64,000 nucleotides of DNA from a virus, in the IMG/VR virus record IMGVR_UViG_3300010883_019551, positions 1 through 64,000 of that record. One strand, given 5' to 3'. Position numbers and translations under genes: made by a program. Below the pieces are notes generated by a model. It worked only from the letters and a program-made list of their open reading frames with translations, was not told where the DNA came from and did not search any database. Positions 1,859 through 62,981 of the stretch are shown piece by piece (positions within the stretch are counted from its first letter, which is position 1; each line of letters opens with the position of its first letter).

Positions 1859-1861
1859 GGA

Positions 1862-2239: not shown

Positions 2240-2247
2240 AATACCTC

Positions 2248-2988: not shown

Positions 2989-3301
2989 TTTCTTCTTCCT
3001 CCTCGTCAGCGTAAATGTCGTCATCAATAGAGGCGCCGAGAGAATTAGCTATAGTAAGAATAGAATTCCGGGTGGTTTTAAGATCGTTTACGACCTGCCT
3101 TATCTCCGGACTATCATAAAAGAGTGGTATTTCTAAAACTTTAGAAATGGACATAACCCTTTCGTCTATCACATCAAGTGACTCCTCTACTGAATCTTGA
3201 ACTTTTAAGATTACTAGACCGAAACGTATACTAAAATAAACACCAACAACCGCTAGCGCAGCCAATGAAATAATTATCACTGTAGACGCTGTTAGACTCA
3301 T
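2969..3301 (-). CDS. Small membrane-anchored coiled-coil protein
   Basis: N-terminal hydrophobic helix and acidic C-terminus; ATGA overlap with upstream gene. Confidence 0.7.
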   Translation of the reverse strand: MSLTASTVIIISLAALAVVGVYFSIRFGLVILKVQDSVEESLDVIDERVMSISKVLEIPLFYDSPEIRQVVNDLKTTRNSILTIANSLGASIDDDIYADEEEEEIDSQEN

Positions 3302-42000: not shown

Positions 42001-43475
42001 AGGAACAGAGTAAAATCCTGTAGCTGATTGTCTGCCCCGGCGACGGTAGTCTCAGTGTGTTCTATGTGCACTCTAGAGGCCGGCCTGTTATTAGCCCAGA
42101 TAGACGAGTCAAACCCCAGACCAATCCGATCGAAGTATCCATCAACATAGAACATATGAGTATCTTCACCCGACTCTATCCTGAAGTCGAATTCCCGCTC
42201 GCTCCCCTCGTTAAAAATCACATCGGAGGTGCTGTTCGTACAGTCGATTCTCATTGCATCAATATTACTGCCATTTTGGTTTGTCTTGAATATGAGGCTC
42301 TTTTGTGAAGTCAGGTTTTGTACTGTCCAATCTCCACTATTATCCTGCTTAAAGTCGAGGGGAGTTGTGCCATCATCTTTGAAAGTGATATTAGCGCCGG
42401 CTGCGTCCAGTATGATATCAGCAGCAGAATCGATTGTAAGATCCCCGGATGTGTTTTTAATATGATTACCGACAACTGTTAGATCGCCTTGAATTGAAGC
42501 ATTCTGATCTGCATCAACTGTTATAACAAGTTCATTGTCAACGTTATAGATACGGTTGTTGCCAAGTATTAGGTTGTTGCCAATCGTAACGTTATCTGAG
42601 GTATCTAGCGTGATCGCTGTGCCACCGTCTGATGCTTTTATGGTGTTACTACCAATAGTAACGCTTCCGTCCATCTGAACGTTACCAGATTCATCGACCT
42701 CAAACTTAGAAGTTTCAGAGTTATTCCAGACGACGAACTTATTGGTACCGTCATTATCTTGATCAAGCTGAACAATGACATTGGCATCAGATCTAATTCT
42801 TAAGTTTGCATCTGTGGGTCCGTAAATGTCGCCACCGTCAACATGCAGATCACCTGCAACAGTTACATTTGTGGGAAAACTTAAGGATATGCTTCCTTCT
42901 CCTAAAGTTACATCAATCTCATTTGATGTGCCGGTGATTGCTGCATTTTCCCATCGGGACTGATTGTTATCCCATACTAGTACATGTCCAGCAGCTTTAG
43001 TTACATCTGCTGTATTGACATTTCCAATCTCGCTAAGTGTATCCGGTGTCGAGGCATCAACATAAGCCTTGATGCTTTGCTGTGTAGCTAAAGCAATTGC
43101 ACTGTTGGTTGACATGTTGTCTTCGTCTAGAATCCCGTTACATAATGAGCCAGTGCCTATCTTAAGATTTCCGGAAACAAACAGGTCTGATGCTGCGTAT
43201 GCATCGCCCATAATTTTTGCTTCACCAGAACCAGAAAGATGAATAGCAATTGCTCCGCCCTCGTCCTTAATGTCTTTACCACCTACCTGTATATCACCCG
43301 TGAGTGTAAGATTGGGCATGTCAACAGAACCAGAAACTGATATGTCCCCAGAGACATAAAGATCGTTGCCAACCGTTAAGTCACCGAAGACCTGGTCGAC
43401 TAATCCATCGACATCTAAGCTGCCGGAGATGTGGGCAGAGCCCGTAACCATTAATGTGCTGGTATAAATTCCCAT
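39012..43475 (-). CDS. Large tail/head fibre protein with probable C-terminal intramolecular chaperone (peptidase G2-like)
   Basis: 1487 aa, Gly/Asp/Thr/Ser-rich beta repeats; ATQQSIKAYVD twice; ERMRITHDGLVGIGT; C-terminal CNEGGTIETGDLLCTSSTPGHLMKQDDD...YTVAK. Confidence 0.8.
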   Translation of the reverse strand: MGIYTSTLMVTGSAHISGSLDVDGLVDQVFGDLTVGNDLYVSGDISVSGSVDMPNLTLTGDIQVGGKDIKDEGGAIAIHLSGSGEAKIMGDAYAASDLFVSGNLKIGTGSLCNGILDEDNMSTNSAIALATQQSIKAYVDASTPDTLSEIGNVNTADVTKAAGHVLVWDNNQSRWENAAITGTSNEIDVTLGEGSISLSFPTNVTVAGDLHVDGGDIYGPTDANLRIRSDANVIVQLDQDNDGTNKFVVWNNSETSKFEVDESGNVQMDGSVTIGSNTIKASDGGTAITLDTSDNVTIGNNLILGNNRIYNVDNELVITVDADQNASIQGDLTVVGNHIKNTSGDLTIDSAADIILDAAGANITFKDDGTTPLDFKQDNSGDWTVQNLTSQKSLIFKTNQNGSNIDAMRIDCTNSTSDVIFNEGSEREFDFRIESGEDTHMFYVDGYFDRIGLGFDSSIWANNRPASRVHIEHTETTVAGADNQLQDFTLFLKNLSTTVNSFAGIAFDVSSEADEDSIGAAIRVERDTSASTNPANHDANLTFATNDAGDDGLTERMRITHDGLVGIGTATPGHSLDVTGNARITGDLTIEGTTTTVNTTNLLVKDKNIVINDGGGAASGAGAGLDIEENGSITGYIRVADDDRGNWDLKAPDGSELKIDVNANKTLTVAGSLNIEADSNINQDVTTDASPQFTALTVGTNITVGDGHFKAAAGQTLELDSPHHVIVNLDTDNNGTAEFLIKNGADATILDLDESGNLQFDGTLQIGSSTTVAGVLDEDAMDSNSATSLATQQSIKAYVDGAVIPARTAGSGLDLSGNALAVDVSDFLTNGANNRIITATSADAMNAESSLTFDGTDLSVSGKVKTIGLEFTDGDDAINISDGGYVEIVKGLNKSNSVLVGEPGYDSGSDDQWIKVASIANAFNSITYGTNQTTFLIHQTYLGDTARAATETYIAYVRLSGDSSGNANTSDCDVTVELLSSHDDIGAWSPSNVTLSFDATADAASLWVQSTNIGAKCWVSILGGTNPEGYALNNIGANSEGWAIQTGQSWAASITSNGTDVTGIWADKTFNALHVQGGAMIGDAAANRGYGHVELEMNASDDAAEGITISAPGGARTLRFLDMSSNRSIFAGSGGDANIVIGANGLYLETRPYVNYGSAADFVLRRQDSTLVSGNQLGRMIFQGAESSTYYGVGAVECVADESWVNNSTHATRVQIYATPAGSTVNDKAAVFRATTDATCLQLDGNITEDAFFSDGHQYKVDGVEAPSIEKGDCLVLTDGKLKKSSAPKQKNVAGIAWYRLCDHKSEDIGGNGFNRVFGIQPQPEVIFDSESEHIGKYQVPHTNGPIYDSIEDWEAAEDPYSKEFSKKWRDSLGNLYDQAARDENDNWDIHSEYAKVWKVISLGDSRQHESPDESVNYATDIQGFKVCNEGGTIETGDLLCTSSTPGHLMKQDDDLMHSYTVAKAMQDVTFDSEGEASGIYGYIYCG

Positions 43476-46400
43476 TATTCACTCTCCTCTATTGGTTCAA
43501 GCATCATCTTAAATTTCTTTCCTGTTGTGTTGTTAATAACACAAAGATAGTCAGCTTCCTCAACAATAGTCCAATCACCTTTGTCATTTTTGAGATTCAA
43601 GTCACCGGTGTAAATATTTCGGAACCGAGATGATTCAGACCCTAAATCGTAAGTGTTGTTAGTCGCTGGAAGAATGTGCCCGGTAAACTGATGAGCGGCA
43701 TCTGCATTACTATTTACGTAATTAATAACTGTTGTATTCGGAGAGCTAATATAGCGTGACGTTCCGCCAAACTCCAAGTTTTTGGTAGCAGCCATCCTTA
43801 ACGACGCGTTATTTCCCTGAAGCCTCATAACTTCTGTTGGAGTACCGCCGTCGTTAACACCAAAAATGATGTTCCCATCAGAGACTTCACCCAGTATCGA
43901 TACTAAGCTACTATTGGCAGCCTTAGTAATATCATATCCAGGGAGTATTGAGAATACGTCTACACCCGAATTATTCTTTCCAATTAGAGGTGCTTGATAG
44001 CCTACCGCTTCGAAGGAAGCAGATAGAGCATATTGTACAGTACCAGGTGCTGCTCCCCAAGAATTAAATCTTGCGCCTGCGACCAGTGATCCGGACGCAA
44101 CAACATCGCCACCAAACGCGGCGACCTTAGTGTCTGATGAAGAGCCTCTATCAATGGTACCGGAGACATAAAAGTAGATGTCACTTGCAACTTGTTCCGC
44201 ATATTGATTAGCAGAACTTAGTGAGAACGATCCCGTGCTTCTAATTTTAAGAGTATCAGGTGACTGAGTTGCTAGCATCTCGAATGCTGTGCTAATAGCA
44301 CCTATCGAGGAAAGATCTGTTAGAGTTTTTACGCCCCCTGTAGCTGTATCTCTAAATGTAAGATCATTACTTACGCGTTGGATATAATTGTTGGCATCAC
44401 CAAATCTGATGTAGCTATTTGTCTGTAGGTCTAGATTAGTAAGTGCTAGCGCGTTAGGCGTTAATGTTCCACTAACAAAAACATCTCCCGAGTAATAAGT
44501 CTCTTCGGATTCAACATTCAATAAGTGCGATGCAAGTATTAGGTCATTTTGCTTACCCGAAACAGTAGAGTTTGAGAGTGAAACGTTAGCGCTTCCGAAC
44601 CGTACTTGTTTTCCGGGTGCCACCTTGAGTGCAGAAACATCTCCGTCAAGCCTCATAACCTCTGTCATGGTCCCGCCGTCGTTCACCATGAAGATCATGT
44701 CTTTGTCGGAAACAGAAGAAGAGAGATATAAATCAGAAGATCTGCTTCTAATAGAACCTATCTCAGTACCGCTATCTTTAAGAACCCAGTTACCTAAATC
44801 AGAGTCTAACCAGATATCTGACTCTGAATCTAGAATAACAAAACCACCCTTAGCTGTTAGACCAACTCCATCGCCCTCAATCTTTTCACCATCATTTCCA
44901 AACGTAAGGCCGATACTAGTAGGAATATTAATGTTTGCTGCGGCTGTCAGGTTAATGTCGGCGCCGGCAATCGTCAAATTAGTTCCATCGCCCTCGATCT
45001 TCTCACCATCGTTACCGAATGTAAGACCAATGTTAGCTGGGATATTAATGTCACCCCCTGCACCAACACCAAAGTGAATATCAGTTCCGTCTCCGTAGAT
45101 ATGCTCTTCAGCTGTACCAAGTTGTATTTGCTTACTACCTGAAATGGCAAGGGCTGAGGTGCTGCCATCGAGCCTGAATATCTCTGTCATGGCGCCGGCG
45201 TCATTCACCATAAAGATCATGTCTTTATTTTGCTGTGAAGAAGAAAGATATAGATTGCCTGCTCTGCTTCTAATAGACCCAAGCTCATACGACCCATCTT
45301 GAAATACCCAGTTGCCCGAATCAGAGTTCAACCAGATATCTGACTCTGAATCTAGAATAACAAAACCACCCTTAGCGGTCAATCCAAATCCGTCGCCTTC
45401 AATCTTCTCACCATCGTTACCAAACGTGAGACCTATTTCTGATGGGATGTTGATATCACCACCCACCTCAATAACAAAATCAAGCTCAGATGCAGAAACT
45501 ATTAACTTGGTTCCGTCGCCTTCAATCTTCTCACCATCGTTACCGAATGTAAGACCAATGTTAGCTGGAACGTTGATGTCTCCTCCGGCTCCGACTGTGA
45601 TCGTTAGATCTGTCCCATCAGACTCAATCTTTTCTCCGCCGCCCATGAGGATTCCGACATTAGCAGGAATCACCACATCTTCTGTCGCAGTGAGATTAAT
45701 ATTGTTTCCGGATATTGTTAAGTCTGTGCCATCACCTGATATTTTCTCCCCATCGTTTCCAAATGTTACACCAATGCCAGAAGGTATGTTGACATTAGCT
45801 TCTGCAGTTAGATTAATGTCACCTCCCTGAATTGTCAGATTTGTTCCGTCACCCGAAATATTCTCGCCGTCGTTACCGAAAGTCAAACCAATATTGGCCG
45901 GAATGTTTATATCCCCACCCGCTCCGACACCAAAGTGAATATCAGTTCCGTCTCCGTAGATATGCTCTTCAGCAGCTCCAAGCTGCAATTGTTTGCTGGC
46001 AGCGATCTTCAATGCTGAAACATCACCATCTAGTCTAAAGACCTCAGTTGGTGTGCCTCCATCATTCACCATAAAGATCATGTCTTTGTCTGAAACAGAA
46101 GCTGACAGATACATGTCGCCTGCAACGCCCTGTATCTTTCCGTATTCCGACAACGATCCTGATGCGAAGATAACTTCTCCGGAGTCCGGACGGAGCTTCA
46201 AGTAACCCATGGTTTCAAAGTCTACGCCAGAGTGATCACCATTCCATGTTTTGTTGAGATTCAGCCGCGCGTTGAGCACACCATTTCTCAAGAAGTCGAT
46301 ATCAGAACCAGCAGCATCGAGAATAATGTCTCCCCCAGAATCGAGCGTAATTTTTCCAGCTGCGTCGATCTCTAGATTATTACTTCCGTCTACTTCGATT

Positions 46401-49400
46401 TTGTTGGTGTCAGCACCGAATGTAAGACCAATTTGAGAAGGAATATTAATGTCTGCCTCTGCAGTTAGATTAATGTCTCCTCCCTGAATTGTCAGATTCG
46501 TTCCATTGCCTTCGATCTTCTCACCATCAGCACCAAACGTGAGACCAATGTTAGCTGGGATGTTAATATCACCTCCGGACGCTAAGCCGAAGTTAATGTC
46601 ATCGCCATCGCCGTAGATGTGCTCAGCACCGTCGTCATATAGATCAACCCGCCTTACTCGAACTGTACCAGGGTTACCAGAAAAGACCTCAGATGCATTG
46701 GTGGCATCAGGAATAAAAGTAAAGACACCACCCGAATCATCGTAACCCATGAAACCGGTCTTGCCGGCGGATCCATTATGCCAGTGGAATTCAATACCAC
46801 GATCCTTGTTATCATCAGATCCGGACGCTAGCTCTCCACCAATAACAATGACAGGATCATCAACACTAATTGTTGTGCTGTTAACTGTTGTTGTTGTGCC
46901 GTTGACTGTGAGGTCACCTTGAACTGTAAGGTTGTCGTTAACCGTAGTCTCTGACGTCGCATGACCAATGCTGATTGCTGTTCCTGATGTGGCGCCTACA
47001 ATAACTCTTGCTACACCGGCTCCAGCGTTGGAAGCATCAATCGTAAGATTCTTTGTGCTGCCGTGATTCGCCGCCATTGTCAAGTTAACTGAGTCAGCCG
47101 CATCTAGAGATAGAGTTGAAGTCCCGTCTATAGTAATAGCCCCGGACGCGTCAATGTCTAGAGCAACAGCATCGAAGTCTACATTACCAGATCCGTCATA
47201 AGCCAGCGCTTCAGTATCATCTCCAATAGATGCCCCGGCGTCACCACTGATTACGATCGTAGACGTGCTGTCCACAGTAACTGCACCAGAAGCATCAATA
47301 TCCAGTGAGGTTGAGTTCATGTCGACAGGAGCAGCTGTTGTTGCACCTATCTGAATAATAGCTGCGCTATCAATCGCCACAGCACCCACAGCGTCAATAT
47401 CAATTGTGCCTGCAGTTGCATTAAGTTTCAATGCCGATGCACCGGCACCCGCTGATGTAAGACGAAGTTCCTGTGTACTGCCACCAGCCACCGCGATGTC
47501 TAAGTCTTTTCCTGAAGCTGTAACGGTAATATTTGAGTCGTCAACAGCGTCTATAGATAATGTACTACCACCAAGAATATCGATTGCGCCCGACGCGTCA
47601 ATGTCCAATGTAACAGCATCGAAGTCTACATTACCAGATCCGTCGTAAGAAAGGCCTTCAGTATCATCGCTAAGAGTCGCGCCTCCATCGCCACTAATTA
47701 CGATAGTAGATGTGCTATCCATGGTGATTGCGCCCGACGCGTCAATGTCCAATGTTGTTGAGTCAATATCAATAGGTGTGTCTGTTTCAGTACCAATGTA
47801 GACTCCGGCAGATCCGTCTAAGTTTAGGCGACCTGCGTCTGCATCGATGTCGATCACTCCTTGCGCATCGAGAACTATGTTTCCATCTGCAATTACATTA
47901 AAGTGCGCAGATGCAGCATCATCATCTATTGTTGTGAATGTTGTGACACCGTGTTGTTCTATTTTAATTTCTAGCTTGTCGCCTGTGTCTTGATCATCAT
48001 GCAATGTAAGCTTTGTATTATCAACATCAAAGTCGAAGATCGTGTCAGTGGCATCGCTCATTACAACGTTACCGCCGTCGGCACTTAGATGAATATTTCT
48101 ACCAGCGTCTAGTGTAATACCACCAGCATCAGCTTGAACAAGCACAGCCGCGACGCTGGCGCCAGCATCTTCAGCACCTTGAGTATTTTTAACAGTGATT
48201 CTTTCTGAAGTTCCGGCGTTTGTAGTGATATTGATCGCGCCAGTGTTGTTAAACGTCGAGTCTAGACTTAAAGGTCCAGCAGTATCAACTGAAATTCCCG
48301 TTGTTCCGGCATCAATGTTTATTCCACCGGCAGCATTCGATGCGTTAATAGTGATAGCATTTATATCAGCTTCGCCGGCACCGATATTAACTGATCCGGC
48401 TGTGTTGACAATATCAATATCTTCACTGGCTGCACCAGCAGCTAATATATCAATACCACCAGCAGCAGCATTTATTGTAATAGCATCAGGTTCGTTTTCT
48501 GTTGATAAGAGATTAATCCCCGTATTAGAAACTAAGTCTAAGTTTTCCCCTGATGCTCCTCCAGCAACTGTAATATCAATACCACCCGCTGTGGCACTTA
48601 TTTGCAAAGCATCAGCAGCTGTTCCAGCAGATGACAAGATTAAACTAGCATCAACACCGGCGTCCATTGCTATGGTGAAATCACCATCAGCAGTAGCAGT
48701 ATGACTGATATTTGAAGCGCCTCCTGCTGAGTCAACAGAAAGAGTTCCCTCTGTATCTAGCGTTACGTTACCCGCTGCATTGATATCAAGTGTCGATGAC
48801 TCCATAACAACTGGGACATCTGCCTCAACTCCGATATTGATTCCGGTTGAACCATCTAGACTTAGTGCACCTGCATTCGCATCAATGTCAACGGCACCGT
48901 CTGCAACAACGGTAAAGTCAGCTGCCCCTGCTGCAGCGTCTACAGTTGTAATTGTTAAATCACCATTTGTACCGACGCCCAACGTGGAGTAATCATCTGC
49001 ATTATTAGAAAGCTTAAGCTGCACTGTGGATCCGTAGACTTCTAGTAAAGAATCAGGATCTGCAACACCTATACCCACTTTGCCGCTGTCTAGAATTCGC
49101 ATTCTTTCTGTAGACGCAGTGTCATCAGCTTGACCAATTGGTGATGTTACAAAGACAAGATCTGTTCCCTTAGCAGTAGAGCTGTGAGCCTCCGCCGCGT
49201 AGGCAATAATAGCTGCACCTGCTTCTGTAACAGAGTTAGGTACATTTCCATCTTCGCTATCAAATCCAATCCCGCCTAGAATGTCCCCGTCAACCGTTTC
49301 TCGATCAGCTCTGACAATCATAATACCGTTATCATTAGCAGATCCCGAAACCATTACCTGGAGTCTATTACTGGGAGAGTTTGTCCCTAACCCGATTCTA

Positions 49401-50026
49401 TCTGAGCTAGCATCTACAAAGAACGTGTACGGCTTAGTCGATGTATGAATTACAAAGTCATTTCCAGGAACAGGAGTTCCACCAGCTCCGGATCCAGCGC
49501 CGCCAATAGTTGTGTAATGTGTTGTTCCGCTAGAAATATTAAATACTGCGCCTTGATTGACATGAAGCGATCCTGAGATGTGTGCCCTATGAGGCACCAT
49601 AAGGTCGCCTCGAACGGCTTCATCGACTTGCATGACCTGACGTTCAGCATACAATGTTCCGGAGATTACAACATCTCCACCGAATAGAACAACTTTACCG
49701 CCGTGATAGTCATCTTCAAGTGCCCGGCCTGGTGAGCCAGGATGAGATCCCGTTAGAACTCTGTGAAAATTATTTCCAGCTGTTCCATCATAATATCCCC
49801 ACTGAGGGTGAGACTGCGCGCCGGAAACAAACATCCATACGTCTTTTCCCACGTTATTAAGCATGGAAGGTTCTAGTGTTCCGTCGTATTTTTGAGTTCC
49901 GCCACTGTTAACTGCATGTCGATGGTCATATACAGCTAGCCCTAGATAAGGAGTTCCAGCTGCGATACCACCCGATCCAATTAACTTGGATGTTCTTATC
50001 TGTTTGCTTCTAAAGTCTTTTGCCAT
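43475..50026 (-). CDS. Giant repeat-rich fibre protein
   Basis: 2183 aa; nine INIPxxIGLTFGxDGEKIxG-type repeats; RIGLGTNSP; GDLTVNGTTTTVN; C-terminal YDLGS...RFRNIYTGDLNL...GDWTIVE fibre tip. Confidence 0.8.
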   Translation of the reverse strand: MAKDFRSKQIRTSKLIGSGGIAAGTPYLGLAVYDHRHAVNSGGTQKYDGTLEPSMLNNVGKDVWMFVSGAQSHPQWGYYDGTAGNNFHRVLTGSHPGSPGRALEDDYHGGKVVLFGGDVVISGTLYAERQVMQVDEAVRGDLMVPHRAHISGSLHVNQGAVFNISSGTTHYTTIGGAGSGAGGTPVPGNDFVIHTSTKPYTFFVDASSDRIGLGTNSPSNRLQVMVSGSANDNGIMIVRADRETVDGDILGGIGFDSEDGNVPNSVTEAGAAIIAYAAEAHSSTAKGTDLVFVTSPIGQADDTASTERMRILDSGKVGIGVADPDSLLEVYGSTVQLKLSNNADDYSTLGVGTNGDLTITTVDAAAGAADFTVVADGAVDIDANAGALSLDGSTGINIGVEADVPVVMESSTLDINAAGNVTLDTEGTLSVDSAGGASNISHTATADGDFTIAMDAGVDASLILSSAGTAADALQISATAGGIDITVAGGASGENLDLVSNTGINLLSTENEPDAITINAAAGGIDILAAGAASEDIDIVNTAGSVNIGAGEADINAITINASNAAGGINIDAGTTGISVDTAGPLSLDSTFNNTGAINITTNAGTSERITVKNTQGAEDAGASVAAVLVQADAGGITLDAGRNIHLSADGGNVVMSDATDTIFDFDVDNTKLTLHDDQDTGDKLEIKIEQHGVTTFTTIDDDAASAHFNVIADGNIVLDAQGVIDIDADAGRLNLDGSAGVYIGTETDTPIDIDSTTLDIDASGAITMDSTSTIVISGDGGATLSDDTEGLSYDGSGNVDFDAVTLDIDASGAIDILGGSTLSIDAVDDSNITVTASGKDLDIAVAGGSTQELRLTSAGAGASALKLNATAGTIDIDAVGAVAIDSAAIIQIGATTAAPVDMNSTSLDIDASGAVTVDSTSTIVISGDAGASIGDDTEALAYDGSGNVDFDAVALDIDASGAITIDGTSTLSLDAADSVNLTMAANHGSTKNLTIDASNAGAGVARVIVGATSGTAISIGHATSETTVNDNLTVQGDLTVNGTTTTVNSTTISVDDPVIVIGGELASGSDDNKDRGIEFHWHNGSAGKTGFMGYDDSGGVFTFIPDATNASEVFSGNPGTVRVRRVDLYDDGAEHIYGDGDDINFGLASGGDINIPANIGLTFGADGEKIEGNGTNLTIQGGDINLTAEADINIPSQIGLTFGADTNKIEVDGSNNLEIDAAGKITLDSGGDIILDAAGSDIDFLRNGVLNARLNLNKTWNGDHSGVDFETMGYLKLRPDSGEVIFASGSLSEYGKIQGVAGDMYLSASVSDKDMIFMVNDGGTPTEVFRLDGDVSALKIAASKQLQLGAAEEHIYGDGTDIHFGVGAGGDINIPANIGLTFGNDGENISGDGTNLTIQGGDINLTAEANVNIPSGIGVTFGNDGEKISGDGTDLTISGNNINLTATEDVVIPANVGILMGGGEKIESDGTDLTITVGAGGDINVPANIGLTFGNDGEKIEGDGTKLIVSASELDFVIEVGGDINIPSEIGLTFGNDGEKIEGDGFGLTAKGGFVILDSESDIWLNSDSGNWVFQDGSYELGSIRSRAGNLYLSSSQQNKDMIFMVNDAGAMTEIFRLDGSTSALAISGSKQIQLGTAEEHIYGDGTDIHFGVGAGGDINIPANIGLTFGNDGEKIEGDGTNLTIAGADINLTAAANINIPTSIGLTFGNDGEKIEGDGVGLTAKGGFVILDSESDIWLDSDLGNWVLKDSGTEIGSIRSRSSDLYLSSSVSDKDMIFMVNDGGTMTEVMRLDGDVSALKVAPGKQVRFGSANVSLSNSTVSGKQNDLILASHLLNVESEETYYSGDVFVSGTLTPNALALTNLDLQTNSYIRFGDANNYIQRVSNDLTFRDTATGGVKTLTDLSSIGAISTAFEMLATQSPDTLKIRSTGSFSLSSANQYAEQVASDIYFYVSGTIDRGSSSDTKVAAFGGDVVASGSLVAGARFNSWGAAPGTVQYALSASFEAVGYQAPLIGKNNSGVDVFSILPGYDITKAANSSLVSILGEVSDGNIIFGVNDGGTPTEVMRLQGNNASLRMAATKNLEFGGTSRYISSPNTTVINYVNSNADAAHQFTGHILPATNNTYDLGSESSRFRNIYTGDLNLKNDKGDWTIVEEADYLCVINNTTGKKFKMMLEPIEESE
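44808..45376. repeat. Exact 47-bp direct repeat (44808-44854 and 45330-45376) inside the fibre gene
   Basis: aaccagatatctgactctgaatctagaataacaaaaccacccttagc occurs twice. Confidence 0.9.
45066..45973. repeat. Exact 47-bp direct repeat (45066-45112 and 45927-45973) inside the fibre gene
   Basis: acaccaaagtgaatatcagttccgtctccgtagatatgctcttcagc occurs twice. Confidence 0.9.
47165..47755. repeat. Exact 33-bp (47165-47197 / 47612-47644) and 30-bp (47582-47611 / 47726-47755) direct repeats
   Basis: aacagcatcgaagtctacattaccagatccgtc twice; gattgcgcccgacgcgtcaatgtccaatgt twice. Confidence 0.85.
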
Positions 50027-53681: not shown

Positions 53682-53709
53682 ATTATACTCTTGGCTGTGT
53701 TTAAGTAAT
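53682..53709 (-). promoter_or_regulatory. Putative promoter ATTACT-N16-TATAAT for the tubulin gene, abutting the tmRNA CCA end
   Basis: TATAAT at 53682-53687, TTAC 17 nt upstream. Confidence 0.55.
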
Positions 53710-54071
53710 GGTGGAGGCGGCGGGAGTCGAACCCGCGTCCAAAATGTTTAGCATATCAGGTCATTCACAAGCTTATCTGACTTATTCCCAAATCAAAAAG
53801 GTATCTACAAATTTTCCCATTTCCTATGTAGACTTGGAAATCCACCTATTACAAATAGGGTAACCATTTTGGTCTTGTTTATTTCGATGGGACCAACCAC
53901 TTATCCTAAATTGGTTAGACGGCTTTAGGAAACCACCCGATTAAGCTGCTAGAGCGTATTCGTAATTGTCATTGTTGGCAATTAAATTGTTGTAACACTG
54001 TCAAGCCATGCGTTACCGTTGGCTGCTTGCACCCTCAAGACCTTGCACCCTGTCGAGACCGTTTCGCCCCC
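53709..54071 (-). ncRNA. ssrA: tmRNA (one-piece, ~363 nt), tag peptide (A)ANNDNYEYALAA
   Basis: 5' GGGGGCG pairs with 3' CGCCTCC-ACCA with the G3-U70 Ala determinant; T-arm GCGGGTTCGACTCCCGC; tag frame 53941-53979 ends ...YALAA-stop. Confidence 0.96.
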
Positions 54072-55270: not shown

Positions 55271-55765
55271 CTATTTCGCATGCCAATCAGCGACACTCGT
55301 CGCTGCCCATGAATCGGGCTTAGCAACAAACTCAACGCCGACAGCACAGGCCCAGTTTCTAATAGTTCTAGTAAATTTAGTTGTTGGGTATCTTTCGTCT
55401 GTGTTAGTGTCAGAGTGCATAACAATTTTTCTATTGGGAAACTTGGTGTATATCTCTTGTGCCATGGCAATGGATCTTGCTGCTTCTTCCATTATTCTAT
55501 CTGCTAAATTGGTAAATTTTCTATTGGGTGTTTCTCTGGAAAAATAATAGAAAGCTCCATGACCTTGCTCGTATAAACAAATGACAGTTGCAAAAACATG
55601 GTTACCATTAGTCCCTTTCTTTATATGAGAGTCAGTACCAATATGAATAGAATGAAAGTTATTCTTTGCAATGACCTTGATGATATCTTCTAACGACAGT
55701 ACGTTGTCTTTAGACGGGGATCTCCATTGGTTTCTCCACCTTGTCTTTTTATCATCCTTCATCAA
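55271..55765 (-). CDS. Ribonuclease H-like YkuK (DUF458) family protein
   Basis: IGTDS, FATVI, RIMEEAARSI, HSD, KPDSWAATSVAD. Confidence 0.88.
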   Translation of the reverse strand: MMKDDKKTRWRNQWRSPSKDNVLSLEDIIKVIAKNNFHSIHIGTDSHIKKGTNGNHVFATVICLYEQGHGAFYYFSRETPNRKFTNLADRIMEEAARSIAMAQEIYTKFPNRKIVMHSDTNTDERYPTTKFTRTIRNWACAVGVEFVAKPDSWAATSVADWHAK

Positions 55766-57185
55766 TCATTAACCATGCACCTATTTTATTCATCATCACT
55801 GCATTTGCAATTCCAACTCTGAAGGCACATGCCATGCCCGGCGGAGAGAAACTAGTAATGTTTGAATCTATAAGTTTGCTAAGTACTCGGTCTGTTATGG
55901 GATCTATTTTTTGTTCTCTACACTTTCGCAGATTTGTTAGGCCGTAACGGGATGCTTGGCTATACATTCTTATGATTGTAGATATTCGATCTTGTCTAAT
56001 GCCACGTGATGATCCATGCTCTTTACCCAGGGTTATCGTCACACCTGAAGACATTAAGGAAAATATTCTTTCTTGTAATATTGATCGCTGCTCCCTAAGA
56101 CTCTCTTCAACACCCTGGCTCTGCTCCGGTGTAAAATCGCCAGTCTCATCCTCAGAATTTCTAAACGTTGCAGATAATTTATTTTGGATATTGTTTTTGT
56201 GAGATGTCACTCGCCCAGCAGCGCCCCGGTTCTCTATGGAGATTTCTTTAGGTGTAATACGGATATGATCAACTGATTTCAAATCATCCCACTCAATAGT
56301 GCTTATGAGTTCGCCCTTAAGGGAGGAAACAACATCACACCTACTACATACAGCAATGTCTACTAACTGATTAATTCCTCTAATGTCATAGGGTACTATA
56401 ACGGGAATAACATTTAGCCTGCCCTTAGAATGATTCACAGCTAGAGTATTAGTGACATCATCGTTAAAGCCTCTAGCAAATATTACAGCAGATTGCCCGG
56501 TTCTGAAGGACTGGTCCATAATATTATGAATTTCAGAGACTGACTCAACAATTCCGTCGATGCATACAATCTTAGATTTGTACAAAGAAACCAGCGATGT
56601 TTCTGCAGCTGACCAGAATAAGTCGCTTGAAGTAACTTTTATCACATACCCACTAGTGGAAGCAATCACTGTATGGATTCCAACTTCATCTAGTAAGTTG
56701 GCACTCGATGTCCCAGCCATTTCCAGAGTATTCTTAACAATCTCTATTTCGTATTTAGACCCAACAATTTGTTCAATAGACTCAAAGATATCTTGACTGC
56801 TGACACGCCTCGAGTTTATGCCGATCGATCTGTTTAATTTCGAATAGTCATACGAAGAACGTACGTTCATTAATTTATTTTTCTGAAATGATTTGCTAGA
56901 CTCGAGGAGGGCCAACAATGATATGATCCCAGACCCAGCCCATAGTCCTTCTGATGTCACCACTGTGTTAATCAATAGGTTTCTAAGGGTCTGATTCTTC
57001 GAATCATTAGGGATCAATTCTGTGATTACCCTTAGCACATCTCCGGGCAGCGCTTGAATTACTTTTTCACCATACAAAAAAGAAAGTTGATGACGCAGTA
57101 TGCCATCAACTTTCCCCTGTGTTTCATTGAGAAGTAATCTTATATTTTGGTCTATCTCACTTCGGAGTAATACTGATGTCGACAT
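55752..57185 (-). CDS. Divergent chaperonin (GroEL/Cpn60-like) lacking the GDGTTT ATP motif
   Basis: Apical-domain-like segment IVCIDGIVESVSEI...AVIFARGFNDDVTNTLAVNHSKGRLNVIPV...LVDIAVCSRCDVVSS; LQERI; no GDGTT. Confidence 0.7.
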   Translation of the reverse strand: MSTSVLLRSEIDQNIRLLLNETQGKVDGILRHQLSFLYGEKVIQALPGDVLRVITELIPNDSKNQTLRNLLINTVVTSEGLWAGSGIISLLALLESSKSFQKNKLMNVRSSYDYSKLNRSIGINSRRVSSQDIFESIEQIVGSKYEIEIVKNTLEMAGTSSANLLDEVGIHTVIASTSGYVIKVTSSDLFWSAAETSLVSLYKSKIVCIDGIVESVSEIHNIMDQSFRTGQSAVIFARGFNDDVTNTLAVNHSKGRLNVIPVIVPYDIRGINQLVDIAVCSRCDVVSSLKGELISTIEWDDLKSVDHIRITPKEISIENRGAAGRVTSHKNNIQNKLSATFRNSEDETGDFTPEQSQGVEESLREQRSILQERIFSLMSSGVTITLGKEHGSSRGIRQDRISTIIRMYSQASRYGLTNLRKCREQKIDPITDRVLSKLIDSNITSFSPPGMACAFRVGIANAVMMNKIGAWLMIDEG

Positions 57186-57195
57186 AAAACCGACC

Positions 57196-57459
57196 TTAGT
57201 TCAAGTCAGTGTTACTATTTCGACCAGAACTTCCTAGTGCGTTTAGGAATTTACCGATTGCTTCACCGGCATCTGTAATTGACTGAGCTGTGCCTTCAAT
57301 TGTTTTTGCCTGCTCTTGCTTTGCTTGCTGTTCTAGGCCGAGCCTCATTATTGCACCGAGTATTCCTAAACTAAAGAATACCCATCCTGGAATTATCTGA
57401 CCACCAACCAATAATATAGCTGATGACAATGTTAACACTTCTGGCATTTGAATCTTCAT
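57196..57459 (-). CDS. Small two-TM membrane protein
   Basis: Hydrophobic N-terminal hairpin; AGGAG RBS. Confidence 0.7.
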   Translation of the reverse strand: MKIQMPEVLTLSSAILLVGGQIIPGWVFFSLGILGAIMRLGLEQQAKQEQAKTIEGTAQSITDAGEAIGKFLNALGSSGRNSNTDLN

Positions 57460-57470
57460 GAAATCTCCTT

Positions 57471-59408
57471 TTAGCTATCACGCCACAGATTATTACTGGC
57501 ATAAGTTAAAATCTCTTCTGCAGAGTCTGCATTATACCCGTACTCATCAATCATAACCTGCACCATGTCACTGTATTTCTTTTGTTGATCATCATCTCTA
57601 GTCTTAGACTTTGTGACGATTCGTGCCATGTCTTTGACAGATGAGATAAGATACGATTCAATTGCTTCCTTGAGCGGCTCATACGATGTGTAATCAACTG
57701 TGTCATTTCTTCTCATTCTAGCAAACATGTAAGCTGTAACATCACTTCTGAATCCGTCTCTAGCTGATCCTGTGATTCCGATCTGTTCTTCGATTGACTT
57801 CATGAAGTTTTCGTCGGGTTCCATTTCCTGCTTAGTGATCTGATCTTTAAGCTTCTGACGTGTTGTGTAAGCTTCTGCATTATCTAGATACGCATCAAAC
57901 AAGGACTGGGCTTGCTCTTCATAAGCAGTAATAAACGCCTTGGCAATTTCTGTCTCAAGAATTTTAAGGTATTCTTCTCTTACTACCTGTTGAATAAGCT
58001 GTAAGCATGTTTCCTTAAAGTCCTCATCTATTAATTGCTCTTTGATCTGCTTTCTGAGAGAGTTAATAATAGATACCGGCGTGATAATATTTTTTTCTGC
58101 GTCTGACAAAGCATTGTCGATGGCCTTCATAATAAATCTCGTTGAGATTCCGGACATACCTTCGTTTGGTGCTTCCTCTCTAAGATCTCGAATATCAACC
58201 TTCTTTACACGCCCCTTTTCAATAACATCATCGCCGTTATAAATTTTCATCTTTGTCAAAATATCACACTTTTGTGATTGCTTAAGACGAGACATAACAG
58301 AGAACATTGATGCAACACGAAGTGTGTGAGGTGCGATATGTGAAGTGAAGTCTGATCTACCGAGAATTTTCTCATAGATCCGCATTTCCTGATCTAGCTC
58401 TAGAACATACGGGACATTAATCTTTACCACACGGTCTAGAATAGCCTCGTTGGTGTGTTCGCTCTGAAATCTATTCCACTCTGACTCATTACAGTGGGCC
58501 AGAATGACCCCATCAAAGTGAAGCATATCATGCTTACCGGGACAGGGAACTCTCTTTTCCTGCGTTGCTGTAATAATAGTATGGAGAAATTCAATTTCAT
58601 TTTTGAATACTTCAACTAGCTCAACAATACCTCGATTACCGATATTGAACGCGCCTGTCAAGGAGAGGACACGTGGGTCGTCTTCTGAATATCGATCCAG
58701 CTTGGAGATATCTTCTGAGCCGATTAGAACACCGACATCTTGGCTGTTAGCATCCATAGGTGGAACTGATGCAATTCCACGACGTCCTCGCTGGGAAAAC
58801 GTGGACTCAACGACAGTATACTCTTCGTACTTTCCTTCAAGCTCATGCATTAACTTGTGGCGCGCAATAGGACTAATATCGCCCTCGATCTTTGTGCCAA
58901 GTGCCTCTTCAAATTTCCCGCGTAAGCCTCGAGGAATCAACTGCAAGGGTTCACCTCGTTGTGGGTCACCTTCAAGATGGTAATACGACAGTTGTTCTAT
59001 AGACTCCTTAATATGTTCTGTTAATGCAGATTTTCCAGCACCAACAGGACCCATTAAAAGAATAACCTGGCGTGATTCTTCGCCTCTTTTAGCCGCTGAC
59101 TTGAGAAACCTCATTATCTTTGCGATGACTCGCTCATGACCAAAAAATTCGGTTTGGAAATAATCGTAAATCTTGATGTTGTCACCATCAAATATTTTAT
59201 TTTTACGAATATCAGACTCAGGCATTGTCTCCATACCATAATCCATAATGGCATGATATAGGCGCTTATGCGCTAGTTTAGTGATACTAGGATCTTCCTT
59301 GACCAAGTCAAAATAGTCTAGAAGCGTTCCCTTGAACTTTTGCTTCTTTTTCTTACTTCTCTGAGTCTTTATCAGATCTAAAAATTCATTTTTCTTCTTA
59401 GTAGCCAT
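57471..59408 (-). CDS. prkA: PrkA/YeaG family AAA+ ATPase / serine kinase
   Basis: LMGPVGAGKS Walker A, SQDVGVLIG, NRGIVELVEVFK, EAILDR, EGMSGISTRF. Confidence 0.95.
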   Translation of the reverse strand: MATKKKNEFLDLIKTQRSKKKKQKFKGTLLDYFDLVKEDPSITKLAHKRLYHAIMDYGMETMPESDIRKNKIFDGDNIKIYDYFQTEFFGHERVIAKIMRFLKSAAKRGEESRQVILLMGPVGAGKSALTEHIKESIEQLSYYHLEGDPQRGEPLQLIPRGLRGKFEEALGTKIEGDISPIARHKLMHELEGKYEEYTVVESTFSQRGRRGIASVPPMDANSQDVGVLIGSEDISKLDRYSEDDPRVLSLTGAFNIGNRGIVELVEVFKNEIEFLHTIITATQEKRVPCPGKHDMLHFDGVILAHCNESEWNRFQSEHTNEAILDRVVKINVPYVLELDQEMRIYEKILGRSDFTSHIAPHTLRVASMFSVMSRLKQSQKCDILTKMKIYNGDDVIEKGRVKKVDIRDLREEAPNEGMSGISTRFIMKAIDNALSDAEKNIITPVSIINSLRKQIKEQLIDEDFKETCLQLIQQVVREEYLKILETEIAKAFITAYEEQAQSLFDAYLDNAEAYTTRQKLKDQITKQEMEPDENFMKSIEEQIGITGSARDGFRSDVTAYMFARMRRNDTVDYTSYEPLKEAIESYLISSVKDMARIVTKSKTRDDDQQKKYSDMVQVMIDEYGYNADSAEEILTYASNNLWRDS

Positions 59409-59426
59409 GTTTATGGTTCTCCGATT

Positions 59427-60737
59427 TTATATTTCCCAAATGTCACCTTCGACTTCAGTATATAGTTTGACAACGTCACCCCAAAGATGACTAATATGAA
59501 GCACAACTTCATCAGCATGCCCCAAATCTATGTCTCTTCCATCGTGATCGTGTCTTAATACTAATACATTCCCATCCTCTACATCGTCTACGTAAATAAC
59601 AGGTATCCCGTTTGTTCCAACTTGTGAAATAAGATCATCTCTAACCTTTTTCCACCCGCCTTCGTCGGAGATGTCTGTTATCTCAAGCTGCTCCTTGTTC
59701 TTAGCGTAGCTAAACAATCCTAAATCGTAACAGTCTTCTTGTGTAAGGTATTGTCGTAAAAAAGAGACATCATGTGCTGTTTCTCTTGCAAGAAAACATT
59801 CTTCTATACCATGCCTCTCTTCGATACGCTTGAACATTTCGAAGCCAAGGTGATAAGGATTTAAGCCGCCGATATGAGGGCGAACAACTTGATTGTGACT
59901 CTTAAGAAACGGGATATGGTACTCTTGAGGTAACTCTAGTTTGTGCATAAGGCGATAGTGCCAAAACGATGCCCACCCTTCATTCATAATTTTAGTTTGC
60001 ATTTGGGGAATGAAGTACTTTGCTTGGTCTCTGCATATTTCTATTACATCCTGTGTCCAAGGCTCTAGCTTCGCATGATTATTAACAAACTCTAGTACAT
60101 CATAATTGGGCTCTAGAGGCACTTTGTTAATATCAAATTCTGAATAAATTCCGTCCTCATCGTTGTTTATTATATCAACGTACTTCTGTCTTATCTGTTT
60201 TTCTGTCTGTTTCATGAAAGGATAGCGATCAGTTTGAAACTGTACAGCATGACATGCGTCAAGAATTTTTTCTACTTTTTCAATACCAATGTTGGGATTC
60301 TCTACATACTTTTGAATTCGTTTCTTACCATTTCGAAATCTCTGTATAACAGTACCAGCTCTAGTATCTTGGAACATCCTGTTGTTCTTAAAGAAGTCAG
60401 AATGTCCCACACAGTGACACATGATAAGAAGCTGTAGGTATGCTGGGTTTTCTCTCATTAGATAGGCGATGGATGGGTCGCTGTTAATAATGAGTTCGTA
60501 TGGAAGACCTTCCTGGCCCAGATTATATTTTTGATGTGTTACTTCAAATGTCTTGCCATGTGACCAGTGACCATAATGAGATGGCATGCCATGATACGAC
60601 ATATGACCAATCATACTATAGTAATCACAAATTTCATAATTGATAGGATACCAATCAAGACCTTCTGACTGTGCCAGGTCAATAATCTTGTCATCCCATT
60701 CTGTAAGAAAATCTGTATTCCAGTCTACATTAAACAT
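59427..60737 (-). CDS. spoVR: SpoVR/YcgB family protein
   Basis: GMPSHYGHWSHGK, YELIINSDPSIAYLM, HCVGHSDFFKNN, TKIMNEGWASFWH, NPYHLG. Confidence 0.95.
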   Translation of the reverse strand: MFNVDWNTDFLTEWDDKIIDLAQSEGLDWYPINYEICDYYSMIGHMSYHGMPSHYGHWSHGKTFEVTHQKYNLGQEGLPYELIINSDPSIAYLMRENPAYLQLLIMCHCVGHSDFFKNNRMFQDTRAGTVIQRFRNGKKRIQKYVENPNIGIEKVEKILDACHAVQFQTDRYPFMKQTEKQIRQKYVDIINNDEDGIYSEFDINKVPLEPNYDVLEFVNNHAKLEPWTQDVIEICRDQAKYFIPQMQTKIMNEGWASFWHYRLMHKLELPQEYHIPFLKSHNQVVRPHIGGLNPYHLGFEMFKRIEERHGIEECFLARETAHDVSFLRQYLTQEDCYDLGLFSYAKNKEQLEITDISDEGGWKKVRDDLISQVGTNGIPVIYVDDVEDGNVLVLRHDHDGRDIDLGHADEVVLHISHLWGDVVKLYTEVEGDIWEI

Positions 60738-60738
60738 T

Positions 60739-61938
60739 TTATGCGGATCCCGCCGGAATTGCTACTCTTTTACCAAGTAGTTTCTTGAATGCCGGCCAGA
60801 TGTCTTCCTTCTGATGAATCTTTACAATCTTAAGACGCTTGTCTTTAATTGTTTCATAAGTCGACGACATTCTTGATCCCTCAGATATCCACTTAAGTCT
60901 GTCTGAATCCGGCTCAATTTCACAATAGCCAAACAGCTGACATTTTTCTTTAATTGTCTCTGCTATTTTAATAGTTGCTGGTAGATCTGATGGCCAGTTA
61001 TCCCCATCTGAGCACTGGAAAAGATAAACGTTCCATGCAGAAGGATGATATCTCTTGTCAATAATTTCATTGACTTTCTCCAGACCTGATGAAACTATGG
61101 TGCCCCCACTATTCCCTCTTCTAAAGAATCTGTCTTCATCAACTTCGTAAGCAGAAGTATCATGTGCAACAAATACTACTTCACAATTTTCGTACCGGTT
61201 ATTGATAAAGTGATAAAGAAGAAAGTAAAAGCTTCGGGCTAAAAATTTCTTATGCTGGGTCATTGAACCAGAGATATCCATTAAAAAGAAGATAACAGCG
61301 TTAGAGGATTCTTTGAGTGTCTTTTTTATGTGACGATATTTGAGGTCATTTTGATTGAATAGAAATCTTTCTCCATCATCTTCGCCGCCCTCTTCAATCC
61401 TTCTTTTTTCCGCTGCCTTCTTTCTCCTGATCCTATTGACCGCAGTCTTTTTCTTATCAAGGCGAGGCCGTATTCCATCATTACGATAACCGTGTCTTTT
61501 CCATTTCTCTCCGGTCACGTTTGTGATTGACTTTCTCTCTAAGTCCGGAAGCTCTAGATCATTAAAAAGATAGTATGTCAACTCCTCAAGCGTAATTTCT
61601 ACTTCGTAGTATTCTTCACCTTGCTCATCGCCTGCCTGATTACCTTGACCTTGCTGACGCTGCTGAGCATCTCCTATCTTTTGTCCACGCTTAATATCTT
61701 TGCCTGGAGCAGACCCTACTTTTTTATTTTGATTGTTATCGCCGTAGACAAATCGGTACTCTTTGATTCCTCGAACTGGGATCTTAATCTTCTTCTTGCC
61801 GTCCTGGCCAATAATAGACTCTTCAGCAACAATACTGTGTACACCATCCTTGATGGCTTCTTCTATTTTTTTGTTATGCCGACGTCGGTCAGATGCCGAT
61901 CTGTCTGCGTTTGTATTGTGTTCTCTGAAAATGGACAT
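60739..61938 (-). CDS. yeaH: YeaH/YhbH (DUF444) vWA-domain protein
   Basis: DRRRH, ELPDL, MDISGSM (MIDAS), SGGTIVSSG, WNVYLFQCSDGDNW. Confidence 0.95.
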   Translation of the reverse strand: MSIFREHNTNADRSASDRRRHNKKIEEAIKDGVHSIVAEESIIGQDGKKKIKIPVRGIKEYRFVYGDNNQNKKVGSAPGKDIKRGQKIGDAQQRQQGQGNQAGDEQGEEYYEVEITLEELTYYLFNDLELPDLERKSITNVTGEKWKRHGYRNDGIRPRLDKKKTAVNRIRRKKAAEKRRIEEGGEDDGERFLFNQNDLKYRHIKKTLKESSNAVIFFLMDISGSMTQHKKFLARSFYFLLYHFINNRYENCEVVFVAHDTSAYEVDEDRFFRRGNSGGTIVSSGLEKVNEIIDKRYHPSAWNVYLFQCSDGDNWPSDLPATIKIAETIKEKCQLFGYCEIEPDSDRLKWISEGSRMSSTYETIKDKRLKIVKIHQKEDIWPAFKKLLGKRVAIPAGSA

Positions 61939-61950
61939 AATTCTACTCTA

Positions 61951-61978
61951 AGTATGGTCTGGGATTTGCTGCAGTAAA
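61951..61978 (-). promoter_or_regulatory. Putative promoter TTTACT-N16-CATACT for yeaH-spoVR-prkA
   Basis: Fills the 44-nt intergenic gap; same spacing as the other three copies. Confidence 0.55.
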
Positions 61979-61982
61979 TCTC

Positions 61983-62981
61983 TTATGTATCATTAACGAC
62001 ACTCCTTGCCCACAATATTGCCGGCTTGAGGTAATCATAAACGCGGTTCTCCATGAAGTCCCAATCAACCCATGCAGCAGCATGATGTTCAAAGACTCCA
62101 GTGTGAGGATTTTTCTTAACTGCTGGGTCCTGTGTTGTTTCTGCAATGTATACTGTAATATTAGCTTTACCAGAAATTAATTTGGGCTCTTTACCCCATC
62201 TAAAATTAAGTTCTGAGATATCGGCTTCTTCTAGAGTTTCTCTGAGAGCTGTTGAGAAAGTGTCTTCCCCTTCTTCAATGCCGCCCTTAGGGATATCATA
62301 CTTGCCATAAAGTCTAAGACCCAGAACTTTCCATTCTTCGTCTATTCTTTTGACGACAACCACGCCGGCGCCATCAGGCAAGTTATTTTTTGTGATCTTT
62401 ACAGACATCTTGTCTTCCCTTAGAATTGTCCTGATGATCTTCTTCAAGTAAGAAAAAGATTCAGCAACTAGCGTTGATTGAAATTTGATACCAGAGTCAT
62501 CTACAACTCTTTTAATAGCACGTATATTGTTAGCATTGTCTTCATAGACATGCACTAAATCATAGTCGCCTGTCTTAATTCGACTCATGACATACTTTGC
62601 CTTTACCATTGGGTTTGAGTCACCGACAGCCTGGATATCAATACCGGTAAGACCTTGATCTTGAAGATACATTCTGACCGGTTTATCTGCAGCCCGGGCA
62701 GTAAGAATTACTATGTTCTCAACCCCATGCTTAGCTATAGCATTATTCAATGCGCCAAAAGTGCTATCGATAGGCTCAGCGCCAGGAGGATATGAATCAA
62801 ATTCGGCGTAGTCGAATTCATCATCGCGCTCCGCAGTGTACTCAGCATACTCTTCAGTACTCAGCATCTCTTCGGATCCGTCGCTGTGAATTACCCTAAC
62901 ACGCGCTGTTGATTTAATCAACGTGTCGTCAAAGTCAAATATCGATAGTACATTTCCCAAATCTTTCCATCCTACTGACAA
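61983..62981 (-). CDS. HAD-like phosphatase fused to a NUDIX hydrolase
   Basis: IFDFDDTL, ILTAR, YEDN (HAD); GGIEEGEDTFSTALRETLEE (Nudix box). Confidence 0.85.
   Translation of the reverse strand: MSVGWKDLGNVLSIFDFDDTLIKSTARVRVIHSDGSEEMLSTEEYAEYTAERDDEFDYAEFDSYPPGAEPIDSTFGALNNAIAKHGVENIVILTARAADKPVRMYLQDQGLTGIDIQAVGDSNPMVKAKYVMSRIKTGDYDLVHVYEDNANNIRAIKRVVDDSGIKFQSTLVAESFSYLKKIIRTILREDKMSVKITKNNLPDGAGVVVVKRIDEEWKVLGLRLYGKYDIPKGGIEEGEDTFSTALRETLEEADISELNFRWGKEPKLISGKANITVYIAETTQDPAVKKNPHTGVFEHHAAAWVDWDFMENRVYDYLKPAILWARSVVNDT

Follow-up and report, generated by a model that had tools for sequence, protein, structure and literature searches.

A yeaH-spoVR-prkA gene triad in an uncultured marine T4-like jumbo phage: setting, conservation and possible function

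The bacterial genes yeaH, spoVR and prkA lie side by side in the IMG/VR virus record IMGVR_UViG_3300010883_019551, which raises the question whether the triad is a genuine part of a phage genome and, if so, what it could do there. We analyzed bases 1-64000 of this single 79,699-bp record, a stretch of 64,000 nucleotides (nt) referred to as the window in the following. The window was shown to be part of the genome of an uncultured, T4-like jumbo phage from the sea, and the triad is, judged from its sequence, complete, intact and apparently functional.

The triad and its phage setting

The three genes and the spacer in front of them are located on the minus strand:

61939..61982, minus strand: 44-nt spacer between a NUDIX gene and yeaH
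60739..61938, minus strand: yeaH/yhbH homologue (DUF444), 399 amino acids (aa); Pfam PF04285, 1.8e-117; phrog_19072, 4e-99
59427..60737, minus strand: spoVR/ycgB homologue, 436 aa; Pfam PF04293, 8e-120 (profile positions 1-405 of 407); PF24755 (SpoVR_C), 2e-06
57471..59408, minus strand: prkA/yeaG homologue, 645 aa; Pfam PF08298 (AAA_PrkA), 4.3e-131; PF06798 (C-terminal domain), 8.7e-82

They are transcribed in the order yeaH, spoVR, prkA and are adjacent and co-directional, with gaps of 1 nt and 18 nt. The spoVR gene starts 1 nt past the yeaH stop codon, and the ATG of prkA is preceded at 8 nt by a GGAG ribosome-binding site. An initial annotation, made by a model from the sequence alone, had described three intact genes in this order with conserved Walker A, metal ion-dependent adhesion site (MIDAS) and SpoVR His/Glu motifs. 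This description was borne out, as the three open reading frames (ORFs) are full-length with Pfam E values below 1e-115 and the motif columns are at least 95% conserved across 117-133 phage and cellular homologues (alignments of 133 PrkA, 128 YeaH and 117 SpoVR sequences). In PrkA, PF08298 covers residues 28-382 (profile 2-358 of 358) and PF06798 residues 384-636 (1-255 of 255). The Walker A motif is GPVGAGKS, and its K126 is invariant in the 133 sequences. PrkA also matches the PDB entry 9xip, 'Serine protein kinase', over residues 22-639 (E 4e-88); by sequence this entry is a solved PrkA homologue, and a literature search found no paper on it. YeaH consists of an N-terminal region and a C-terminal von Willebrand factor A (vWA) domain, in which the MIDAS residues D221-x-S223-x-S225, T280 and D311 are conserved in at least 95% of the 128 sequences. 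In SpoVR, the residues H108, H112, E81, E156, E253, H260, H281 and D323 are essentially invariant (117 sequences). Among the NCBIfam models, spore_yhbH, the SpoVR family and PrkA score best, and all three proteins stay below the equivalog cut-offs. YeaH reaches 408 bits against TIGR02877 spore_yhbH (cut-off 467.95), and PrkA reaches 395.8 bits against NF011999, the E. coli YeaG equivalog (cut-off 576). By these scores the triad genes are true members of their families, but no orthologues of their counterparts in E. coli or Bacillus.

The phage-like content of the record comprises a transfer-messenger RNA (tmRNA) and two tRNAs, PhoH, a helicase whose nearest kin are helicases of jumbo and huge phages, a giant structural-type protein and a glycan-synthesis cluster. 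The triad sits within a 64-kb array of co-directional and closely packed genes. A gene for the capsid protein Gp23 is absent from the window's own 79.7-kb contig. For comparison with other viruses, a PrkA-based scan of IMG/VR was performed, which yielded 46 contigs, the longest of 254 kb, whose PrkA proteins are 61-92% identical to that of the window. The order yeaH-spoVR-prkA is kept in all 46. Most of them also have the flanking genes in common, with a cytidylyltransferase and the NUDIX gene upstream and a small ORF (orf87), a GroEL-like gene, a tubulin-like gene and PhoH downstream. In four large relatives (G001-G004), a T4-type Gp23 capsid gene (about 215 bits) and the gene for the large terminase subunit (TerL) share the contig with the triad, and both were also assigned to the same molecule as the triad in a fifth contig, G005:C5. 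The latter (NHDW01000006.1, 305,838 bp, also listed as L059) was deposited within the metagenome-assembled genome (MAG) 'Methylococcaceae bacterium TMED69'. It carries the triad in phage order, with a PrkA 76% identical to that of the window, together with T4 Gp23, and most probably represents a nearly complete genome of a jumbo phage that was wrongly binned with bacterial contigs. The assignment of the window to a T4-like (Gp23-type) myovirus is based on synteny with, and 61-92% identity to, Gp23-bearing contigs. That the triad is located on a phage, as first claimed from the letters alone, was confirmed via the relatives with Gp23 and TerL on the triad contigs, and the proposed search for co-occurrence in viral databases recovered the trio in the 46 IMG/VR contigs and in GenBank phages.

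In addition, we analyzed whether the assembly is continuous around the triad. Independent marine metagenomes from different studies contain the stretch nearly identically. The NUDIX/yeaH junction is bridged by an independent metagenome contig over 61523-62272, the spoVR/prkA junction over 59109-60607 and the GroEL-like/orf87/prkA junction over 57114-57643. The content of guanine plus cytosine (GC) is uniform across the region (39-42%). Among GenBank phages the region gave no megablast match, and therefore there is no close cultured relative. The best cultured matches of PhoH, helicase and Gp23 are 31-46% identical. They lean weakly to phages of Bacteroidota and cyanobacteria, from which no conclusion on the host is drawn.

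The initial annotation had further proposed that the triad has its own promoter. The sequence TTTACT-N16-CATACT is indeed present at 61977-61950 within the spacer. It agrees with the sigma-70 consensus at 8/12 positions, which is under the threshold of the scanner, so that the scan did not list it. Across the region, 23 promoter-like sites were found versus 26.4 expected from shuffles. A dedicated promoter is not supported, since the 8/12 match is no better than chance and promoter-like sites are not in excess. A different element, CCATACTTA, is located at 61957-61949 and ends 11 nt before the yeaH ATG. It occurs, exactly or as a near copy, at the same place in four diverged relatives (L005, L006, L011 and L017), and some signal may be conserved there. 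As the element is found once in the window, it does not represent a phage promoter motif that recurs. For the T4 late motif TATAAATA, 4 occurrences were expected in the window and a single one was found, away from the triad.

Selection, gene order and origin

L005, the closest relative, served as the reference for the analysis of selection on the triad. Protein identity to L005 is 90-92% for the three genes, whereas the DNA is 76-80% identical, and codon-level counts revealed that about half of the residues identical to L005 are encoded by differing codons. The dN, i.e. the divergence at nonsynonymous sites, is 0.06-0.07. Synonymous sites are saturated even against this closest relative, and for this reason codon counts were used instead of a numerical dN/dS ratio. 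The neighbouring proteins are less similar to their counterparts in L005: 80% for NUDIX, 75% for the cytidylyltransferase, 74% for orf87 and 55% for the GroEL-like protein. The triad is the most constrained block of its neighbourhood and was shown to be under strong purifying selection across a large phage clade. This clade is common in the sea, abundant and cosmopolitan: clusters of proteins at least 76% identical to the PrkA of the window number at least 120 (Tara, JGI and ENA samples), and the stretch is present in runs from many studies, in marine and seawater metagenomes.

Cellular counterparts were collected by scans of one genome per prokaryote species. They revealed 83 cellular loci in Clostridia and other Bacillota, Bdellovibrionota, "delta" lineages, Binatia and others, with PrkA proteins 50-57% identical to that of the window (exception: L058 at 35%). 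The prkA gene comes first in 83 of 83 cellular loci, and all 75 complete ones read prkA-yeaH-spoVR, which agrees with the earlier statement that prkA is usually first and the permuted order unusual. Because all cellular loci have prkA first, the order yeaH-spoVR-prkA marks this phage clade. The only "bacterial" locus in phage order is the 305,838-bp contig of the MAG TMED69, which is read as a mis-binned jumbo phage because it also carries Gp23.

The cellular module prkA-yhbH-spoVR/yeaG-yeaH-ycgB of the short subtype (Clostridia, Bdellovibrionota and others) consists of the same three families with full-length domains and shares the invariant Walker A, MIDAS and SpoVR His/Glu residues with the phage module. 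The identity between phage and cellular proteins is 50-57% for PrkA, 38-53% for YeaH and 34-49% for SpoVR. The phage module differs in being virus-borne, in its permuted order and in SpoVR position 109, and the host-type control context of RpoS, sigma-E or PrkC is absent. Position 109 (about 60411-60413) directly follows the first conserved His and is Cys in 37/37 marine-phage sequences but Val in 71/71 cellular sequences of the short type, a clade-specific exchange directly at the putative metal site.

PrkA trees were calculated with FastTree on all 133 rows and with LG+G4 on 42 rows. The marine phage PrkA clade is monophyletic (support 100). It nests within the short PrkA subtype beside Bacillota, with values of 91-92 in the Shimodaira-Hasegawa-like approximate likelihood ratio test (SH-aLRT), and far from the YeaG-type sequences. 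The donor phylogeny suggested at the outset led to a subtype, while the Bacillota-like sister relation itself, at SH-aLRT 91-92, is not decisive. The module was probably gained once from a bacterium with a short, Bacillota-like PrkA. Its gene order was changed by a cyclic permutation, followed by vertical inheritance across the phage clade, for which the shared order and flanks of the 46 loci speak.

Similar trios are present in other phages. In the Thermus phages phiYS40, TMA, phiLo, MN1 and Lalka8/27, the trio is likewise phage-borne, has the same order yeaH-spoVR-prkA and is annotated as 'serine kinase', 'SpoVR' and 'vWA domain protein'. In contrast to the window, their PrkA is about 30% identical and forms a separate long-branch clade, their hosts are thermophilic, their genomes are smaller and the trio lies beside head and terminase genes; in TMA, spoVR and prkA are separated by an additional gene. 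The approximately unbiased (AU) test rejected one common origin of this order for the marine and the Thermus phages (p 6e-06, for a group that was named post hoc from the tree and with long Thermus branches), and the permuted order of the Thermus phages is apparently of independent origin. The Ralstonia jumbo phage RsoM2USA and the huge phages LR745206, LR756502, LR756504 and LR756511 are also large phages with all three genes, and their helicase and Gp23-type capsid are distantly related to those of the window clade. Their PrkA is YeaG-like (gammaproteobacterial-type) or long-branch and 29-32% identical to that of the window, and they have the canonical prkA-first order. In the huge phage LR756502.1 the module is split, with prkA-yeaH at 273.9-277.1 kb and the only spoVR match at 520.0-521.4 kb, about 243 kb apart. 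In the paper on RsoM2USA, PrkA and SpoVR are listed separately and the trio is uncommented. Because the Thermus group is separate (AU test) and the PrkA of RsoM2USA and the huge phages is YeaG-like or long-branch, phages have picked up the module several times; two or more separate permutation events seem to have occurred in phages, and none in the sampled cells.

The 30.8-kb record MN688132.1 (Enterobacter phage LAU1) carries YeaG and YeaH at its extreme end (bases 58-3287), and a SpoVR match was not found in it. These two genes look like prophage-flanking host DNA and not like a phage-borne module. PHROGs contains families for all three triad proteins. As GenBank phages carry the trio as well, its novelty had been overrated at first: phage trios are already annotated in public records, and the window adds a well-documented example but no new kind of system.

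Possible function of the triad

The best explanation overall, to which we assign a probability of roughly 0.45, is that the phage-carried bacterial module drives protein degradation or remodelling in infected cells. PrkA would be the AAA+ ATPase motor, YeaH a vWA/MIDAS adaptor and SpoVR a zincin-like, metal-binding partner. The trio would act together in infection as it does in cells and carry out a broad, ATP-dependent degradation or remodelling of proteins, as a phage-run counterpart of the YeaG-dependent protein degradation which is induced in E. coli by starvation. In nutrient-poor hosts, the host proteins could thereby supply the amino acids and the energy that the building of a very large virion requires, and with its own copy the phage could run this process independently of RpoS or sporulation control of the host. 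PrkA of B. subtilis binds and hydrolyses ATP via its Walker A motif (K108), degrades casein in an ATP- and Walker-A-dependent manner and is inhibited by PrkC through phosphorylation at T217 (PMC9512850). At the position equivalent to T217, 38/38 sequences of the phage clade have Ile or Val, and many cellular sequences have Ile as well. Upon starvation, E. coli depends on yeaG for a global, non-specific degradation of cytoplasmic proteins, which feeds new protein synthesis (PMC13684143). In six bacteria, yeaG, yeaH and ycgB show cofitness (bioRxiv 10.1101/072470).

A structural model of SpoVR was calculated with AlphaFold2 (predicted local distance difference test, pLDDT, 90.4; predicted template modelling score, pTM, 0.88) and compared with 48,161 PDB representatives by VIA-align. 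The top 50 matches are almost all zincin metallopeptidases. The best match is 3o0y (Z 11.5, root-mean-square deviation 3.5, 178 aligned residues). DUF885 structures reach Z 11.5-10.2, M1 aminopeptidases 9-10 and M3, M32, M61 and thermolysin (M4) about 8-9, values which helical models can also reach by chance. The model superposes on zincin catalytic domains over 160-200 residues. H108-C-V-G-H112 is located on a long helix (99-118) which follows a beta strand, and the invariant E156 is found on a helix 44 residues later. In the model, this arrangement of H108-x-x-x-H112 and E156 is the layout of a gluzincin active site and represents a putative metal site. A literature search found no paper on SpoVR as a zincin. 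The C-terminal domain of PrkA was modelled as all-helical (pLDDT 78). Taken as models, these structures would allow PrkA as a motor, YeaH as a MIDAS adaptor and SpoVR as a metal-dependent partner, an arrangement which they leave unproven.

Several results weigh against degradation or remodelling by the trio. A Foldseek search of the PDB returned nothing for the SpoVR model, a permissive Pfam scan of 49 SpoVR proteins found no peptidase family, and the catalytic Glu of HExxH is missing, so that SpoVR may not be a hydrolase. For the C-terminal domain of PrkA, neither a Lon protease nor a kinase fold matched the model significantly (best Z 5.8), and Foldseek against the PDB likewise returned nothing for it; this lack of a fold match is not evidence of absence. 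The protease activity of PrkA is slow, with digests of 16-24 h, and its catalytic protease residues are undefined (PMC9512850). The work on degradation in E. coli covered yeaG only and not yeaH or ycgB (PMC13684143). Three identical short contigs inside prkA and orf87 come from one metatranscriptome, without strand or expression level; they can be taken as a hint of RNA only, as this single library may contain DNA. A more far-reaching version, in which SpoVR is a non-canonical zincin-type metallohydrolase and the real hydrolytic subunit, with PrkA as an AAA+ unfoldase that itself has neither a protease nor a kinase fold and YeaH as adaptor, so that marine jumbo phages would liquidate the host proteome for virion building by means of a deregulated and reordered copy with Cys beside the first metal-binding His and without a PrkC-type phosphosite, is regarded as quite improbable.

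Two other functions have to be considered, and both are doubtful. In the first, which the initial annotation had put forward in terms of dormancy, PrkA would act as a kinase or regulatory ATPase which, together with YeaH and SpoVR, reprograms the stress, stationary-phase or dormancy state of the host, so that starved or dormant cells stay productive or the shutdown of the host is blocked. PrkA/YeaG was originally described as a Ser kinase, and the cofitness of yeaG, yeaH and ycgB led Price et al. to propose that a signalling pathway is conserved here (bioRxiv 10.1101/072470). B. subtilis PrkA also influences sporulation via regulators, and with PhoH and tmRNA nearby the conserved neighbourhood of the triad appears 'stress-like'. 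However, the C-terminal P-loop of PrkA is degenerate and the Walker A motif is the sole ATP site (Zhang et al., PMC9512850), and the model of the C-terminal domain has no kinase fold. The clade occurs in marine plankton metagenomes, where spore formers are rare. Since the clade is widespread in marine and seawater metagenomes, the link to sporulation looks irrelevant for the phage triad. In view of the literature on the PrkA protease (PMC9512850) and on YeaG-dependent proteolysis (PMC13684143), the remodelling of proteins in starved cells, the second option of the initial annotation, fits better than a control of dormancy.

In the second, an AAA+/vWA machine would act on one particular complex of the phage or the host by remodelling it or loading it with metal, without bulk degradation of host proteins, which seems unlikely to a similar degree. 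Possible targets are the giant fibre proteins and the chaperonin-like or tubulin-like protein encoded nearby. The pairing of an AAA+ ATPase with a MIDAS-bearing vWA protein is typical of the MoxR-type pairs RavA-ViaA, CbbQ-CbbO and NorQ-NorD. These pairs, like the zincins, have no relation to the triad at the sequence level, and the phage PrkA has its own unique helical C-terminal domain. The synteny of the triad with the GroEL-like and tubulin-like genes is conserved, and in Thermus phages the trio lies between head or portal genes and the terminase, both of which would fit a role in assembly. Weak lid-like matches to NorQ, Mdn1 and dynein (Z about 5) point in the same direction, but such values are within noise. 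The flanks evolve much faster than the triad (GroEL-like 55% versus 90-92%), which argues against tight co-evolution, and the cellular module works without any phage partner.

That host DNA was mis-assembled or mis-binned on a viral contig, named by the initial annotation as what would refute it, or that the set is a recent functionless passenger, has a negligible probability: neither a capsid nor a terminase gene is on the window's own contig and one relative (L059) was deposited within a bacterial MAG, but an artefact was rejected because 46 viral contigs repeat the gene arrangement with its flanks, Gp23 and TerL are encoded on triad-bearing contigs, the junctions are bridged by independent metagenomes and the GC content is flat, and it would also conflict with the strong purifying selection and with a nearest cellular PrkA that is just 57% identical and has another gene order.

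Neighbouring genes and significance

The window contains further features around the triad:

61983-62981, minus strand: ORF directly upstream of yeaH, N-terminal polynucleotide-kinase-like part (phrog_415) and C-terminal NUDIX hydrolase
57196..57459, minus strand: orf87, 87 aa, translation with hydrophobic N-terminal segment, 11 nt downstream of prkA
55752-57185, minus strand: GroEL-like ORF, 477 aa; phrog_5725, 1e-11, no Pfam match
53709-54071, minus strand: one-piece tmRNA with the tag peptide ANNDNYEYALAA; Rfam RF00023, 116.8 bits
52435-53640, minus strand: 401-aa ORF with a sub-threshold Tubulin/FtsZ GTPase match (E 1e-4, 23 bits versus a cut-off of 33)
43475-50026 and 39012-43475, minus strand: giant ORFs of 2183 aa and 1487 aa; the larger one matches phrog_697, 'structural protein'
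3298-38804, minus strand: co-directional glycan-synthesis cluster of about 35 kb with sugar-nucleotide and glycosyltransferase genes

The ORF upstream of yeaH looks like a fusion and is syntenic in many relatives. Directly after prkA, tblastn matches to orf87 are present in 16 related loci (31-74% identity), and Pfam and PHROG gave no match for it. From its position, orf87 may be an accessory member of the transcription unit of the triad. The GroEL-like ORF is syntenic after prkA and orf87 and fast-evolving, and there is no GroES nearby. The tubulin-like ORF is 65-80% identical in relatives whose neighbouring genes are far less conserved, and because of this conservation it may be a PhuZ/TubZ-like phage cytoskeleton protein. 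The full tmRNA tag ANNDNYEYALAA has no match among the GTDB species representatives. An assignment of the host from the tag was rejected, as its NYEYALAA ending, which occurs in Desulfobacterota, Geobacter, Nitrospirota and Bacteroidales, is too short and too widely spread. A tRNA-Gly(TCC) and a tRNA-Thr(TGT) are located just outside the window and share their strand with all other genes (3782-3856 and 5610-5685 in L004; about 65.8 and 67.6 kb in G000). The glycan cluster lies directly downstream of the two giant genes and comprises GT1 and GT2 glycosyltransferases, UDP-glucose dehydrogenase, UDP-galactopyranose mutase, an epimerase, a carbamoyltransferase and a DUF4910/M28-like protein. The 2183-aa protein matches phrog_697 and cyanophage structural proteins with YadA domains over residues of about 730-1410 only.

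Since phage trios were already annotated publicly, the discovery is incremental. The value of the window lies in the clade-level evidence for one selected unit, in the order signature and in the lead on the SpoVR fold, and the phage copies, as compact natural variants, lend themselves to biochemical and structural work. PrkA, YeaH and SpoVR are among the most widespread of the poorly understood bacterial systems, and their link to ATP-dependent proteolysis and to the bulk degradation of proteins upon starvation dates only to 2022-2026. That the triad is more constrained than its neighbours provides independent evidence, from evolution, for a joint action of the three proteins as one unit, and the carriage of the triad by phages suggests that this unit can work without host-specific regulation. 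If SpoVR were indeed the hydrolytic subunit of such a phage-run machine, a viral 'forced autophagy' would be widespread in the ocean. If the function is the recycling of the host proteome, the triad would give the phages a means of acquiring resources, which would matter for viral production where oceans are poor in nutrients.

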